DNA of 64,000 nt, from sequence record PZ583739.1, one strand, 5' to 3'. Numbering within the stretch: position 1 is the first letter of the stretch; each line of letters starts with the position of its first letter. Source of the DNA: a phage. Under the pieces are notes generated by a model. It did no database searches and was not told where the DNA came from. It saw only the letters and a program-made list of their open reading frames with translations. The translations under genes were made by a program, and so were the position numbers. Shown here one piece after another: positions 60,371-63,585 of this stretch.

Positions 60371-60388
60371 AAAGGCCCGAAGGCCTTT
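60368..60388 (-). terminator. rho-independent terminator
   Basis: ggcc-ttcg-ggcc hairpin flanked by T-runs, directly after the stop of 60388..60786. Confidence 0.55.
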
Positions 60389-60786
60389 TATTTGAATCGA
60401 AGCTGCTCTAACATTTTAATAGCTTGTAGACGGCCGGCTTCAGTTTTAACCGTAATAATAACATCGCCGCCAGTAACAACGATATCCTCTTTTGATTCCT
60501 GTTCGGTTATTTCAGAATCACATTCCGGGACTTCTTCAAAATATTTAAATTCATCACCAAAAATAAGACCGGTTCCATTACGACTATGGAAAGAAAATCC
60601 AGTTCCATCGATAGTACTAAATTCCGTAACAACATTTGCTTCCATCTTAGTGACTGAAAACTCTTTGGTAGTAACCAAATCAATGATAGAGGTTCCCTGT
60701 TGGTTCAAAATGCTACCAGGCATACCAACATGTTTAAGGAAGCCATCTAAATCTTTAATGTGATAACTCTTTCCAATTTTAAACAT
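60388..60786 (-). CDS. hypothetical protein
   Basis: 132 aa ORF. Confidence 0.45.
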   Translation of the reverse strand: MFKIGKSYHIKDLDGFLKHVGMPGSILNQQGTSIIDLVTTKEFSVTKMEANVVTEFSTIDGTGFSFHSRNGTGLIFGDEFKYFEEVPECDSEITEQESKEDIVVTGGDVIITVKTEAGRLQAIKMLEQLRFK

Positions 60787-61235: not shown

Positions 61236-61610
61236 TTATTCCTTAAAGTGTGCTTTCAACATCTGGTAAACGGTCCAGGCTTCAGAGTTATTAGAAATGG
61301 TGATTTTAGTCAAAGGGAATTCGCTTGGTTCAAATGCTTCATCAGCGTCTTCGCATTCATCTTCAGTATCGTCATCTTTTTCTTCTTCAAAGAAACGACG
61401 CTCATCTTCCTTTATGAATATTCTCTCTATTCCACCGGTCGAAAATTCTATCCGATATACATCACCACCTTCAATTCCGACTGGTCTAAATCCTTCACCA
61501 TTGATTATAGCATCAGCTATATTATCATTATCAGAGCATAACAAACGAAATCTGCTTTCAGCAACATTATCTTTAAAATAATACCATTTATCAGTTTCAA
61601 ATTTCAACAT
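61236..61610 (-). CDS. hypothetical protein with acidic C-terminal region
   Basis: Track ORF 61236..61733 overlaps its upstream neighbour; ATG at 61608-61610 with SD GGAAGGA gives 124 aa. Confidence 0.45.
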   Translation of the reverse strand: MLKFETDKWYYFKDNVAESRFRLLCSDNDNIADAIINGEGFRPVGIEGGDVYRIEFSTGGIERIFIKEDERRFFEEEKDDDTEDECEDADEAFEPSEFPLTKITISNNSEAWTVYQMLKAHFKE

Positions 61611-61827: not shown

Positions 61828-61875
61828 AATATTCTCCTCATTGATAGGGTAATTTTACCCTATCATTTTTATAAT

Positions 61876-62436
61876 TTAGGCACGATGAATATCAGCATAC
61901 TCAACGATAAAGCTTTCAGGAACCACCTTAAAGGTTCCAAGGAACACGATGTTATAGAGCTTAACGCCTTCTTCAACCCACTGGTCTGTGATGTAACCAG
62001 ACATGCTAGTGGTTTCATAAGTACCAAAAGGTTCGTCAACATATTCAAACGGTTTAGGTGAAACAAAAAAGACACCTTTGCCCAATTTCCATTTAAAATC
62101 AACCCCAACATGAGACTGGTCAATGGTTTCAACGTCTTGAGCAATTACGCCACGGATATCATTGCTTTCGCACACATATCCATCATGGGATTCAACTTCT
62201 TCAACCACAGGGAGGTTGGCGGCAGTAATAGCAGTTGATTCCAGGAATTTAGCACGAACATAAGCGAATTGAGTTTCAGTCTGACCATTTTTGGGAATGA
62301 TACGCACCTTTACTTCATTATCAGGATGGTCAACAAAAATATCAGCACGAATACTGACAACCTCAACAAAACGTCCAGCGGCTCTTGAACGAGATTTTTT
62401 GGATACGCGAACGATTTCGCCAGCTTCAACTTTCAT
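61876..62436 (-). CDS. hypothetical protein (paralog of 62516..63268)
   Basis: 186 aa; C-terminal GYITDQWVEEGVKLYNIVFLGTFKVVPESFIVEY parallels GWVTDQWIEDGVELLNVVHAGEFTVVPRSMVVEI of the neighbouring gene. Confidence 0.5.
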   Translation of the reverse strand: MKVEAGEIVRVSKKSRSRAAGRFVEVVSIRADIFVDHPDNEVKVRIIPKNGQTETQFAYVRAKFLESTAITAANLPVVEEVESHDGYVCESNDIRGVIAQDVETIDQSHVGVDFKWKLGKGVFFVSPKPFEYVDEPFGTYETTSMSGYITDQWVEEGVKLYNIVFLGTFKVVPESFIVEYADIHRA

Positions 62437-62472
62437 AATTTTCTCTCTTGGTTAATAAGTTTATTCTCCAGT

Positions 62473-62507
62473 GGGGTCATTATACTCTGACCCCAAGAGT
62501 TTGTACA
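62473..62507 (-). promoter_or_regulatory. early promoter embedded in stem-loop (PeSL-like), near-identical copy of 50721..50755
   Basis: Minus strand TGTACA, 17 nt, TATAAT; ggggtca/tgacccc stem around the -10. Confidence 0.55.
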
Positions 62508-62515
62508 CTTTAAAT

Positions 62516-63268
62516 TTAATTAAAAATTTCAACAACCATGGAACGTGGTACAACAGTAAATTCACCAGCATGGACAACGTTCAGGAGTTCAACACCATCT
62601 TCAATCCACTGGTCTGTTACCCAACCACAAATGGAACTATTAAATGGGCGTTTGATTTGAACTGGTTTGCACAACAAGTCAATAGGGTCACCCAGCTCGC
62701 TAACTTCTTCCAGCAGTACAGATTCACGCGGATAAAGGATAGCTTCAAGATTGTCACCTGATTCATTGACTGCAGTAAATTCAAAGATGCTTTGGTGATT
62801 GTGGTACTTAACTGTTTTAACGGTAAATGGAGCAAATCCAAAAATACCTTTCAGTACCCGCCAACCAGCATTCAATGCATTAGTATTATCAAAATCACCA
62901 TATCCAACAAGTTGATAGGTTTTGTCAACTTTGATAGGAGTTTCTTCAACTTCTTTGAAGAGTTCAATCTCAGCTTCATAAACCGTAATTTTTTCTACTT
63001 CATTTGTATCAAGGCGACGTGCATGTAGAATATATGCTTTATCAAACCAGTTACTTTTTACAAAAGTTTCAACAATAAATTCACCTTCACCTAAAGCATC
63101 AGTCAGAGTATTATACCCAGAAACCATAGCTGCGTTTTGAATAATAGGTTCAATCAGTTGATAAGTTTTGTTAATTTCAATAGTCATATTTTGTTTCTCA
63201 AGTTTTAATGGTTTAATTGGGCGAACATACATACTTACAACATCAAAGTCAATAAATTCTGGTTTCAT
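62516..63268 (-). CDS. hypothetical protein with internal domain repeat (paralog of 61876..62436)
   Basis: 250 aa; two KTYQL-initiated repeats; C-terminal domain homologous to 61876..62436. Confidence 0.5.
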   Translation of the reverse strand: MKPEFIDFDVVSMYVRPIKPLKLEKQNMTIEINKTYQLIEPIIQNAAMVSGYNTLTDALGEGEFIVETFVKSNWFDKAYILHARRLDTNEVEKITVYEAEIELFKEVEETPIKVDKTYQLVGYGDFDNTNALNAGWRVLKGIFGFAPFTVKTVKYHNHQSIFEFTAVNESGDNLEAILYPRESVLLEEVSELGDPIDLLCKPVQIKRPFNSSICGWVTDQWIEDGVELLNVVHAGEFTVVPRSMVVEIFN

Positions 63269-63525
63269 TATGCAACCTTATTGAACATCGCCAGTTGATT
63301 AGGTTGTACAACCATAATTTCACGACGACCTTTTGCGTTTGACACGTTCAGGTAGATGCCTTTGTTCATGTCTGTTTCTTTATCATATACCGCAATTTTA
63401 TTGACAGTAAAGATTTTACCACGAATATTTGTAAATGCACATTCAAACGCTTTGGTCAGACCTGCTTCAGCAGCTTGAAGAGCAGACATTTCATATTGTT
63501 GGCCAATTTCAAAAGAAGTAATCAT
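63268..63525 (-). CDS. hypothetical protein
   Basis: Track start ATG at 63571-63573 lies between the promoter -35 and -10; ATG at 63523-63525 with SD GAGGATAAC gives 85 aa. Confidence 0.4.
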   Translation of the reverse strand: MITSFEIGQQYEMSALQAAEAGLTKAFECAFTNIRGKIFTVNKIAVYDKETDMNKGIYLNVSNAKGRREIMVVQPNQLAMFNKVA

Positions 63526-63556
63526 TTTGTTATCCTCATCAGTAGTTGATGAGATG

Positions 63557-63585
63557 ATTATGTCTCTTTCCATTGGCCTTGTACA
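63557..63585 (-). promoter_or_regulatory. early promoter (TGTACA / CATAAT)
   Basis: Minus strand aaaaagtagTGTACA, 17 nt, CATAATcatctcatcaactactgatgaggataacaaaATG. Confidence 0.5.

Follow-up and report, generated by a model that had tools for sequence, protein, structure and literature searches.

In phage T4, motB.1 adjoins motB, and a common C-terminal domain (CTD) of the two encoded proteins, together with a probable gene duplication, was described in 2021 (PMC7827196). T4 MotB (Patterson-West et al. 2018 and 2021) binds DNA tightly and non-specifically and co-purifies with H-NS and StpA (PMC6070864; PMC7827196); its overexpression is toxic, and a doubled burst size has been reported (PMC6070864). 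Both domains of MotB have been considered as its possible DNA-binding part, the CTD being called an OB-fold (PMC7827196). The homologues of MotB.1 have been assigned to Categories 2–4, with T4 MotB.1 in 'Category 2' (PMC7827196), and the LSm-like fold of the MotB.1 N-terminal domain was published in 2025 (PMC12152347). T4 MotB.1 has no deletion phenotype and little or no effect in an RNA reporter, runs as a monomer with a dimer band on non-reducing gels, and yields no confident multimer in AlphaFold3 (PMC12152347).

The window analysed here is a 64-kb stretch of DNA from a Gaprivervirus (SP18-like T-even), with 97.7% DNA identity to Escherichia phage vB_EcoM_RZ, also a Gaprivervirus. An earlier note on this DNA pointed to two adjacent genes for products of 186 and 250 aa. 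Both ORFs are present, both peptides that it quoted occur in the translations, and the minus-strand pair is motB.1 (250 aa) and motB (186 aa), known early neighbours of T4-like phages. The core of the observation has little discovery value because neighbouring MotB/MotB.1 paralogues with a common CTD are already published. The pair is not a new family; the new detail is that the Gaprivervirus MotB.1 has two N-terminal small barrels instead of one.

The motB.1–motB locus

The elements of the locus, in the order of transcription, are:

63557–63585, minus strand: early-promoter-like site (TGTACA-17-CATAAT; consensus scan) serving the 85-aa ORF
63268–63525, minus strand: small 85-aa ORF in the motB.2 slot of T4; its stop overlaps the motB.1 ATG (TAATG)
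62516–63268, minus strand: motB.1 homologue, 250 aa, with leader, barrel A, barrel B and CTD (phrog_2333, E=3.6e-78)
62479–62507, minus strand: motB early promoter (TGTACA-17-TATAAT), conserved with GTTTACA-17-TATAAT of T4
62473–62494, minus strand: conserved 7-bp hairpin (GGGGTCA/TGACCCC); its loop contains most of the -10 box, and GGAG comes next
61876–62436, minus strand: motB, 186 aa (Pfam PF17613, E=2.6e-57, 193.6 bits; phrog_1671, E=3.5e-69)

The gene order dexA–small ORF–motB.1–motB–cef matches that of T4 and is the same in RB14 and RB68, and the pair is also syntenic in JS98-type phages. Here motB.1 lies directly upstream of motB, and motB lies upstream of cef behind its own early promoter. 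A goF homologue is located two genes downstream in the same window. A mechanical ORF listing starts the small ORF at the ATG at 63573 (101 aa), which is upstream of the -10 box; phrog_17795 aligns to residues 17–101 only of this listing, and a GAGGA Shine-Dalgarno sequence (63537–63533) precedes the ATG at 63525. Profile searches within the 64-kb window showed that the 85-aa ORF is not a member of the MotB family.

The earlier note assigned an early promoter to each copy, which holds for motB, with its promoter directly upstream (62507–62479), but not for motB.1, whose nearest site (63585–63557) precedes the 85-aa ORF. This site follows the dexA stop at the same place as GTTTAC...TACTAT upstream of T4 motB.2, and the 5' UTR and ribosome-binding site downstream of it are homologous to those of T4 motB.2. 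No intergenic space precedes motB.1: its start codon overlaps the stop codon of the ORF before it (TAATG at 63268). We infer that the site also serves motB.1, which, judging from the sequence, would be translationally coupled to the 85-aa ORF and use its promoter, like motB.2–motB.1 in T4. In the hairpin over the motB promoter, 100% of the cells are paired across 7 distinct sequences; at two of the pairs there are compensatory double changes, with intermediates of the G-U type, and the RNA fold has a z-score of -3.0. An Rfam search of the hairpin and the whole region returned noise only and no family.

Domain architecture of MotB and MotB.1

The two proteins are divided into the following domains:

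62233–62436, minus strand: MotB KOW-like barrel, aa 1–68 (AlphaFold2 strands within 8–67)
62116–62232, minus strand: MotB acidic disordered linker, aa 69–107 (AlphaFold2 pLDDT<50)
61879–62115, minus strand: MotB CTD, aa 108–186 (AlphaFold2 strands within 121–180)
63188–63268, minus strand: MotB.1 leader (L), aa 1–27, motif 'IDFDVVSMYVxPIKP', predicted disordered (pLDDT 41–50)
62939–63187, minus strand: MotB.1 barrel A, aa 28–110, an RB14/JS98-type N-terminal domain (block-mean pLDDT 75–90)
62693–62938, minus strand: MotB.1 barrel B, aa 111–192, a homologue of A and of the N-terminal domain of T4 MotB.1
62519–62692, minus strand: MotB.1 CTD, aa 193–250, a five-stranded small beta-barrel with the core CGWVTDQWIEDGVELLNVVH (AlphaFold2 strands within 202–248)

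The 186-aa protein matches PF17613 over its full length, far above the curated cut-off of 25 bits, and phrog_1671 at positions 1–166 of 166. Its N-terminal KOW/SH3-like barrel has five strands and carries the basic VS..SRS.AAG motif; residues G6, V11, S12, S15, S17 and G21 are invariant in 35 sequences. The window MotB thus resembles T4 MotB in its family match, N-terminal barrel and motif, CTD, site upstream of cef and early promoter with hairpin, and is ~51% identical to a T4-type MotB (P0191). It differs in an acidic ~23-aa insertion within the 39-aa linker, common to JS98-type MotB proteins and absent from the 163-aa MotB of most Gapriverviruses. The pI of the KOW domain is similar in the two proteins (9.86 here and 9.75 in T4), whereas the overall pI (5.07 vs. 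9.23) and that of the CTD (4.95 vs. 7.7) are lower here. Since the window MotB is acidic overall, DNA binding as by T4 MotB might not apply to it, and the function of T4 MotB can be transferred to it only by inference.

The two genes are paralogous through the common CTD, as the earlier note had proposed. BLASTP aligned the proteins over a ~50-aa stretch with 24/52 identical residues (E=2e-12), in which the MotB.1 CTD matches aa 128–179 of MotB, and PF17613 recognizes the 250-aa protein with 35.2 bits at aa 210–246. At the DNA level, the two C-terminal regions are also linked by an in-frame repeat of 60 nt (D1; 73% identity). The core GWVTDQWIEDGVELLNVVH is invariant in a 39-sequence alignment, where all columns from C214 to H233 are invariant except positions 222, 225 and 226. 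By the CTD HMM (E=1.5e-40 for MotB.1 vs. 1.8e-13 for MotB), the CTD of the 250-aa protein is nearer to the MotB.1 type than to the MotB type; the MotB.1 CTD has a pI of 4.5 both here and in T4. That the similarities are short chance motifs without homology is hardly conceivable. The similarity between the proteins is confined to ~50 aa, but the BLASTP E-value, the Pfam and PHROG cross-matches and a bridging protein (P0246) that matches both argue against chance, as does the CTD HMM, which picks exactly motB and motB.1 among the ORFs of the 64-kb window. The HMM search of the window revealed no third paralogue.

The two KTYQL-initiated repeats and the internal domain duplication claimed for the longer protein were likewise confirmed. 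KTYQL occurs at aa 34–38 and 116–120, a period of 82 aa. Barrels A and B share 29% identity over ~80 aa (BLASTP, E=3e-4), their family profiles align with 96.3% probability (HHalign, E=1.6e-9), and the unit HMMs cross-detect A and B (i-E 1.2e-4 and 4.6e-5). The AlphaFold2 model of MotB.1 (mean pLDDT 76) has an identical order of strands (E) and helices (H) in A (E35-38, H46-59, E63-71, E78-85, E91-97, H98-103, E104-106) and B (E117-120, H130-143, E148-156, E161-168, E173-178, H180-185, E186-189). By HHalign, barrel B also matches the T4-type N-terminal domain (81%, E=1.2e-5), although it is nearer to A. Barrel A belongs to the RB14/JS98 type, which was treated as a distinct N-terminal domain and is probably 'Category 4' of PMC7827196. 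By profile, barrel B joins two N-terminal types earlier called distinct into one homologous barrel family.

The MotB.1 here resembles T4 MotB.1 (UniProt P39415, phrog_2333) in its position directly upstream of motB and its near-invariant CTD, and Foldseek matches it to P39415 (E=3.2e-7). However, it has 250 aa vs. 143 aa, and instead of one LSm/SH3-like five-stranded barrel, a linker and a CTD it has a leader and two tandem barrels before the CTD. Each barrel alone fits the T4 description, and the tandem-barrel MotB.1 is a variant architecture within the family. The leader motif, with conserved columns D7, D9, K19, P20 and L21, is lacking in T4 MotB.1; in RB68-type and KOW-type relatives it follows the N-terminal domain and precedes the CTD. 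Every domain of MotB.1 is acidic (pI 4.4–5.0), and the whole protein has a net charge of -16.

The predicted fold class of barrels A and B is shared with the N-terminal LSm-like barrels of T4 GoF and Frd.2 (PMC12152347), the CTDs of which differ from that of MotB.1. The A, B and T4-type HMMs revealed no sequence relation to the goF-like ORF of the window (E>=0.68). This ORF (61236–61610), the 85-aa ORF and a 132-aa ORF (60388–60786) had been suspected by eye as members of the barrel family and were rejected at the level of sequence (E>=0.68). No match to Pfam LSM or Hfq was found even at E<=1, and sequence searches for solved structures found none. Eukaryotic tandem Tudor/SH3-like barrels (e.g. 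53BP1, PDB 3lgf) show 14–17% identity, a fold analogy only; the comparison gave no sign of common descent or methyl-lysine reading.

Origin of the pair and of the tandem barrels

The family is very small, with 23 clusters at the 50% identity level in a set of 1.84 billion proteins. Barrel A alone retrieved 387 phage records by tblastn, and barrel B alone just 34, of which all those checked are SP18-like Gapriverviruses. Judging from these records, the two-barrel MotB.1 is apparently typical of Gaprivervirus. Single-barrel alleles occur elsewhere, with the architecture L-A-C in RB14 and B'-C in T4; P0101, adjoining motB and cef, is the sole L-B-C sequence known and is A-like up to KTYQL and B-like beyond. 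The extra N-terminal domain (X) found in X-L-A-C proteins of ~248 aa was rejected as a relative of A, B or the T4-type domain: HHalign was not significant, and the idea of a same fold came from the hydrophobic pattern only. Deletion-fusion ORFs (P0254 and P0257) also exist. In more distantly related T4-like phages, those of Klebsiella and Enterobacter, there is one gene in place of the two found here. Its products (P0246–P0253) have a MotB-like KOW barrel and a MotB.1-like L and CTD, with no LSm-like barrel. P0246 is collinear with MotB over the full length (E=6e-12), and its CTD is 68% identical to that of MotB.1. In Klebsiella phage kv_tblp2 (XNL96902) and Enterobacter phage MY742 (XTJ61057), dexA and cef flank the single KOW-L-CTD gene.

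These architectures suggest that one ancestral KOW-L-CTD gene at the locus may have been duplicated. One copy would have retained the KOW barrel while its CTD diverged, giving MotB; the other would have retained L and the CTD and had its KOW barrel replaced by LSm/SH3-like barrels, giving MotB.1. The barrels would later have behaved as cassettes, undergoing duplication, exchange and deletion at the conserved boundary motifs (KTYQL ... EV-x-DPTDLL). The Gaprivervirus motB.1–motB pair, together with this presumed single-gene origin and the mechanism proposed below, is likely the best overall explanation of the locus.

The earlier note instead read the pair as a locally expanding family under selection, and this claim did not stand. 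The genes are adjacent, the locus is in a variable early region, and barrel B has a hypervariable patch after KTYQL, with two allelic versions within the genus and a dN/dS of up to 0.87 in one pair. However, the pair is old and its synteny is kept among T-even phages (T4, RB14, RB68 and JS98-type phages); the family has 23 clusters worldwide, and just two members are present in the 64-kb window. All domains are under purifying selection within the genus (pairwise Nei-Gojobori dN/dS ~0.1–0.5, below 1 everywhere). Likewise, a recent DNA-level tandem duplication of the barrels was rejected, with in-register remnants of just 33 nt and 19 nt at 246-nt spacing (D3, D8). A recent local duplication with adaptive expansion, diversifying under positive selection in this lineage, is therefore very unlikely. 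The 29% identity of A and B and the short DNA remnants indicate either an ancient duplication or a tandem put together from cassettes that had already diverged. The tandem form may have come first and been reduced later by losses, or it may have arisen when cassettes fused. A fusion, in which diverged allelic cassettes (A of L-A-C and B of L-B-C) recombined during co-infection, is a somewhat doubtful but serious possibility. Other phages carry each of the single-barrel alleles at this locus, and every barrel has the same short flanking motifs, xKTYxL in front and EV..DPTDLL behind, by which exchange could be guided. The tandem form is seemingly confined to one genus, and further signs of mosaicism are present in the region (the linker insert of MotB; P0254 and P0257). 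Yet the A-like/B-like junction of P0101 is also that expected from a deletion between in-register repeats of a tandem ancestor, the profile of B is closer to that of A than to the T4 type, and there is only one L-B-C sequence.

Possible functions of the two proteins

By homology with T4, the basic KOW barrel of MotB would coat DNA non-specifically and disturb H-NS/StpA–DNA complexes. From its conservation and charge, the acidic invariant CTD would not be the DNA-binding part but a common docking or self-association module. The acidic MotB.1 would then reach the same partner or complex via its CTD, and its barrels would bind a variable ligand or protein. This joint mechanism, with a DNA-coating KOW barrel, a docking CTD and MotB.1 joining the same partner, is proposed tentatively. 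A published alternative regards MotB.1 as an RNA-binding LSm-like chaperone of a GoF/MotB.1/Frd.2 family and the CTD as a nucleic-acid-binding OB-fold (PMC12152347; PMC7827196); both paralogues would therefore be nucleic-acid binders and the two barrels two RNA-binding surfaces. We consider it rather unlikely, given that MotB.1 is acidic throughout, that its barrels lack any LSM or Hfq match and that the RNA-reporter and AlphaFold3 results for T4 MotB.1 lend little to it (PMC12152347). An even less probable reading takes MotB.1 as a regulator of MotB acting via a docking or oligomerisation CTD, with the barrels and L as specificity cassettes tracking host or phage partners. If so, MotB.1 would hetero-associate or compete with MotB, the toxic protein that coats DNA, or with the H-NS/StpA target of MotB. 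The cassettes (A, B, T4-type and X) would be swappable and the two-barrel MotB.1 a bivalent adaptor, and the ratio in which MotB.1 and MotB are expressed could depend on the conserved hairpin that covers the motB promoter and precedes GGAG.

The additions made by the analysis are modest: a tandem-barrel MotB.1, one barrel family homologous by profile and a plausible ancestral KOW-L-CTD gene; the tandem barrels, the profile link through B and the single KOW-L-CTD gene are absent from PMC7827196 and PMC12152347. The annotation of ~750 phage genomes is improved. The acidic invariant CTD and the basic KOW barrel suggest which domain is the candidate for DNA binding and which for protein docking, and these points could guide work on the interplay of T-even phages with H-NS and the nucleoid.

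The motB.1–motB pair and its shared C-terminal domain

Both open reading frames lie where the earlier note had placed them, and the peptide strings quoted there are present in the translations:

61876–62436, minus strand: motB, 186 aa
62516–63268, minus strand: motB.1, 250 aa

Over 2.5 kb, the DNA here shares 97.7% identity with Escherichia phage vB_EcoM_RZ (Straboviridae, Tevenvirinae, Gaprivervirus), and 93–97% with other SP18-like phages. The gene order in the direction of transcription (dda, a small ORF, dexA, a small ORF, the 250-aa gene, the 186-aa gene, cef, a goF-like gene and 39.2) equals the T4 order dexA–motB.2–motB.1–motB–cef–goF. The two genes are the known motB.1–motB pair.

Sequence comparison of MotB and MotB.1 showed a single significant BLASTP segment (aa 128–179 vs. 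aa 201–247, 24 of 52 residues identical, E=2e-12). The Pfam family motB (PF17613, cut-off 25 bits) matches the whole of MotB (193.6 bits) and MotB.1 at aa 210–246 only (35.2 bits), and an HMM of the C-terminal domain (CTD) matches exactly two of all the ORFs of the 64-kb window, motB and motB.1. Thus, the claimed C-terminal similarity is real. The proteins belong to phrog_1671 (MotB-like) and phrog_2333, respectively, with cross-hits at the C terminus only. At the DNA level the C-terminal regions share an in-frame 60-nt stretch (repeat D1) of 73% identity. The CTD core is invariant in a 39-sequence alignment, while the N-terminal domains are swapped.

Patterson-West et al. (PMC7827196) suggested that one of the two genes arose by duplication of the other. 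[quoted passage not shown] In the study of Kim et al. [quoted passage not shown] The core of the earlier finding is therefore already published.

Tandem barrels in MotB.1

AlphaFold2 models (for MotB.1 from the 39-sequence alignment, mean pLDDT 76) give the following domains:

MotB.1 aa 1–27: disordered leader
MotB.1 aa 28–110: barrel A
MotB.1 aa 111–192: barrel B
MotB.1 aa 193–250: five-stranded C-terminal barrel
MotB aa 1–68: five-stranded N-terminal barrel
MotB aa 69–107 (62116–62232): disordered linker, pLDDT<50
MotB aa 108–186: C-terminal barrel

MotB.1 has the KTYQL motif at aa 34–38 and again, 82 residues further on, at aa 116–120. BLASTP aligns the two units of 82 aa over their full length (29% identity, E=3e-4), the HMM of each unit detects the other, and HHalign comparison of their family profiles gave a probability of 96.3% (E=1.6e-9, 76 columns). 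The modeled units (block means of pLDDT 75–90 for A and 72–85 for B) have an identical order of elements, in which a strand and a long helix are followed by three strands, a short helix and a strand. The internal duplication is thus borne out. It is real but old, since the DNA keeps just a 33-nt match at the unit starts (79%) and a 19-nt match at their ends (74%), spaced exactly 246 nt apart.

Pairwise comparisons of five Gaprivervirus alleles gave dN/dS values of 0.11–0.52 for barrel A, 0.2–0.9 for barrel B and 0.11–0.27 for the CTD, indicating that both barrels are maintained. The changes in barrel B fall mostly in one patch after KTYQL, which has two allelic versions. The earlier note had proposed an expanding family under selection. 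However, these alleles show no sign of gene-wide positive selection by pairwise dN/dS, and the family as a whole is tiny, with only 23 clusters at E≤1e-3 when 1.84 billion representative proteins were searched by profile.

The CTD fold could be SH3-like, or an OB-fold as proposed in 2021, the structure searches having been run with whole models; sequence searches detected no solved structure for MotB or MotB.1. A Foldseek search with the three-barrel model matched ~180 columns in 225-aa A0A1D3RKG6 (Cronobacter phage Pet-CM3-4) and A0A0A0Q2B8 (Pectobacterium phage PM2). Both BFVD matches are uncharacterised (17% identity, E about 1e-5) and may represent distant relatives with several barrels that lie beyond the MotB.1 family as defined by sequence.

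Architectures, origin and flanking elements

Table. Domain architectures at the motB.1–motB locus (the same locus in all rows). L, motif (I/F)D(F/M)D(V/I)xSMYxxx(I/V)KP; A, RB14/JS98-type barrel; B, second barrel of the window; B', T4-type barrel; X, other N-terminal domain; C, CTD.
L-A-B-C: window and other Gapriverviruses, 250–252 aa
L-A-C: RB14, JS98 and many more, ~180 aa
X-L-A-C: several phage and metagenome contigs, ~248 aa
L-B-C: one metagenomic contig, adjoining motB and cef, 165 aa
B'-C: T4, 143 aa
B'-L-C: RB68-like, 164–169 aa
L-C only: two viral contigs, 71–73 aa
KOW-L-C or KOW-C: Klebsiella, Enterobacter and related phages, 125–199 aa

In tblastn searches of the phage collection, whole MotB.1 matched 749 records, barrel A alone 387 and barrel B alone 34; those of the 34 checked for taxonomy or family resemblance are SP18-like Gapriverviruses. 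In profile comparisons B proved to be a homologue of A (E=1.6e-9) as well as of B' (E=1.2e-5), and the comparison of A with B' was not significant. Barrel B therefore joins two N-terminal types described as distinct. The ~80-aa domain X (MNTFDPNAKYIVTP...NEFRILSI...) precedes L-A-C in a second kind of long MotB.1 of ~248 aa (proteins P0008–P0011, P0022, P0038, P0045, P0048 and P0242; loci L009 3255–4004 and L010 3258–4013). Its hydrophobic pattern is like that of A and B, with no significant profile match to the barrels.

T4-like phages of Klebsiella and Enterobacter, among them kv_tblp2 (Klebsiella) and MY742 (Enterobacter), have one MotB-family gene only, between dexA and cef (loci L024 2276–2656 and L025 2231–2725; proteins P0246–P0253). 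Its product combines a MotB-like KOW barrel with a MotB.1-type CTD, and in MY742 also the L motif. P0246 is collinear with the whole of MotB (28% identity, E=6e-12), and its CTD is 68% identical to that of MotB.1 (E=3e-24). This single gene looks like the unduplicated ancestral state. In the simplest reading, an ancestral KOW-L-C gene would have been duplicated; MotB would have retained the KOW barrel while its CTD diverged, and MotB.1 would have retained L and the CTD and gained LSm-like barrels.

The tandem itself may be an old in-gene duplication cut down to one barrel in other lineages, as suggested by the sole known L-B-C protein, which resembles A as far as KTYQL and B from there on, as from a deletion between in-register repeats. 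It may also have been formed later by the joining of two allelic cassettes, and the apparent confinement of the A–B form to one genus favors such a derived tandem. The region is clearly recombinogenic, given the JS98-type linker insert in the window's MotB and the deletion-fusion ORFs elsewhere. Truncated or fused ORFs in other phages (P0254, 43 aa; P0257, 101 aa; P0243, 99 aa; L017 3489–3710; L019 180–395) indicate that deletions are frequent here. In P0254 the motB.2 N terminus runs into the final 28 residues of the MotB.1 CTD, another type has an unrelated N terminus fused to the CTD of MotB, and ORFs consisting of L and the CTD only measure 71–73 aa.

The flanking elements are as follows:

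62507–62479, minus strand: early-type motB promoter (TGTACA 62507–62502, 17-nt spacer, TATAAT 62484–62479), directly upstream of motB
62473–62494, minus strand: 7-bp hairpin GGGGTCA-GAGTATAA-TGACCCC, its loop holding most of the motB TATAAT (62479–62484)
63268–63573, minus strand: small ORF upstream of motB.1 as mechanically listed (101 aa), phrog_17795, unknown function
63585–63557, minus strand: promoter-like site nearest motB.1, before the small ORF
61842–61865: 10-bp near-palindromic hairpin TGATAGGGTA-ATTT-TACCCTATCA between the motB stop and the cef start

The motB promoter is conserved with that of T4 (GTTTACA-17-TATAAT). An own early promoter, claimed for each copy, is thus present for motB but not for motB.1, whose ATG overlaps the preceding stop (TAATG) with zero intergenic space. 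In T4, the promoter that precedes motB.2 has the same position downstream of the dexA stop as the 63585–63557 site. The small ORF probably starts at ATG 63525 (85 aa rather than 101 aa; GAGGA at 63537–63533). It takes the slot of T4 motB.2 (166 aa, phrog_1106) with a different coding sequence, whereas its 5'UTR and Shine-Dalgarno sequence are homologous to those of motB.2. The retained promoter position and 5'UTR suggest a cassette swap of the coding sequence alone.

The promoter hairpin also occurs in T4, RB14, VR20, VR25 and at other loci. In seven distinct sequences every cell is paired. At two of the pairs both partners differ (A-U to G-C, C-G to U-A), G-U pairs being the intermediates, and this pattern suggests a structure formed in RNA, in transcripts that read through from the promoter upstream. 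The RNA fold has a z of -3.0, with no match in Rfam. A conserved GGAG, a possible RegB endoribonuclease motif, follows the stem by 2–3 nt. The hairpin at 61842–61865 owes its resemblance to a terminator to a T-run on the plus strand, the genes lying on the other strand.

Domain charges and possible roles

The KOW barrel of MotB is basic (pI 9.9 in the window, 9.75 in T4), and every domain of MotB.1 is acidic (net charge of the protein -16). The MotB.1 CTD has a pI of 4.5 in both phages, whereas the MotB CTD is acidic in the window (pI 4.95) and near neutral in T4 (pI 7.7). Whole MotB is acidic in the window (pI 5.07 vs. 9.23 in T4) because of the insert in its 39-aa linker (net -8), of which ~23 aa are without counterpart in T4 MotB and the 163-aa MotB of many other Gapriverviruses and are found in JS98-type MotB. 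The linker segment DGYVCESNDIRGV aligns with the L-motif region DGYVVDTDVASMY of KOW-L-CTD proteins.

T4 MotB binds DNA tightly without sequence specificity and co-purifies with H-NS and StpA; it doubles the burst size, and its overexpression is toxic (PMC6070864). Deletion of motB.1 has no phenotype, and the effect of MotB.1 on an RNA reporter is small (PMC12152347). A rival reading, in which MotB.1 may be an LSm-like RNA binder and the CTD an OB-fold nucleic-acid binder, is weakened by the acidity of every MotB.1 domain, the lack of Sm/Hfq profile matches and that negative reporter result. The basic KOW barrel, the acidic MotB.1 and a CTD acidic except in T4 MotB tentatively suggest a different arrangement, one that we regard as possible rather than probable. 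The KOW barrel would carry the non-specific DNA binding of MotB, the shared near-invariant CTD would be a docking or self-association module rather than the DNA-binding part, and MotB.1 would be a partner or adaptor that does not itself bind DNA, with barrels for a variable ligand.

Overall, the earlier observation is confirmed and its interpretation is supported in part. Tandem barrels and duplication go unmentioned in PMC12152347, and no description of the tandem-barrel MotB.1, a variant specific to its lineage within an already known family, was found in that study or in PMC7827196.
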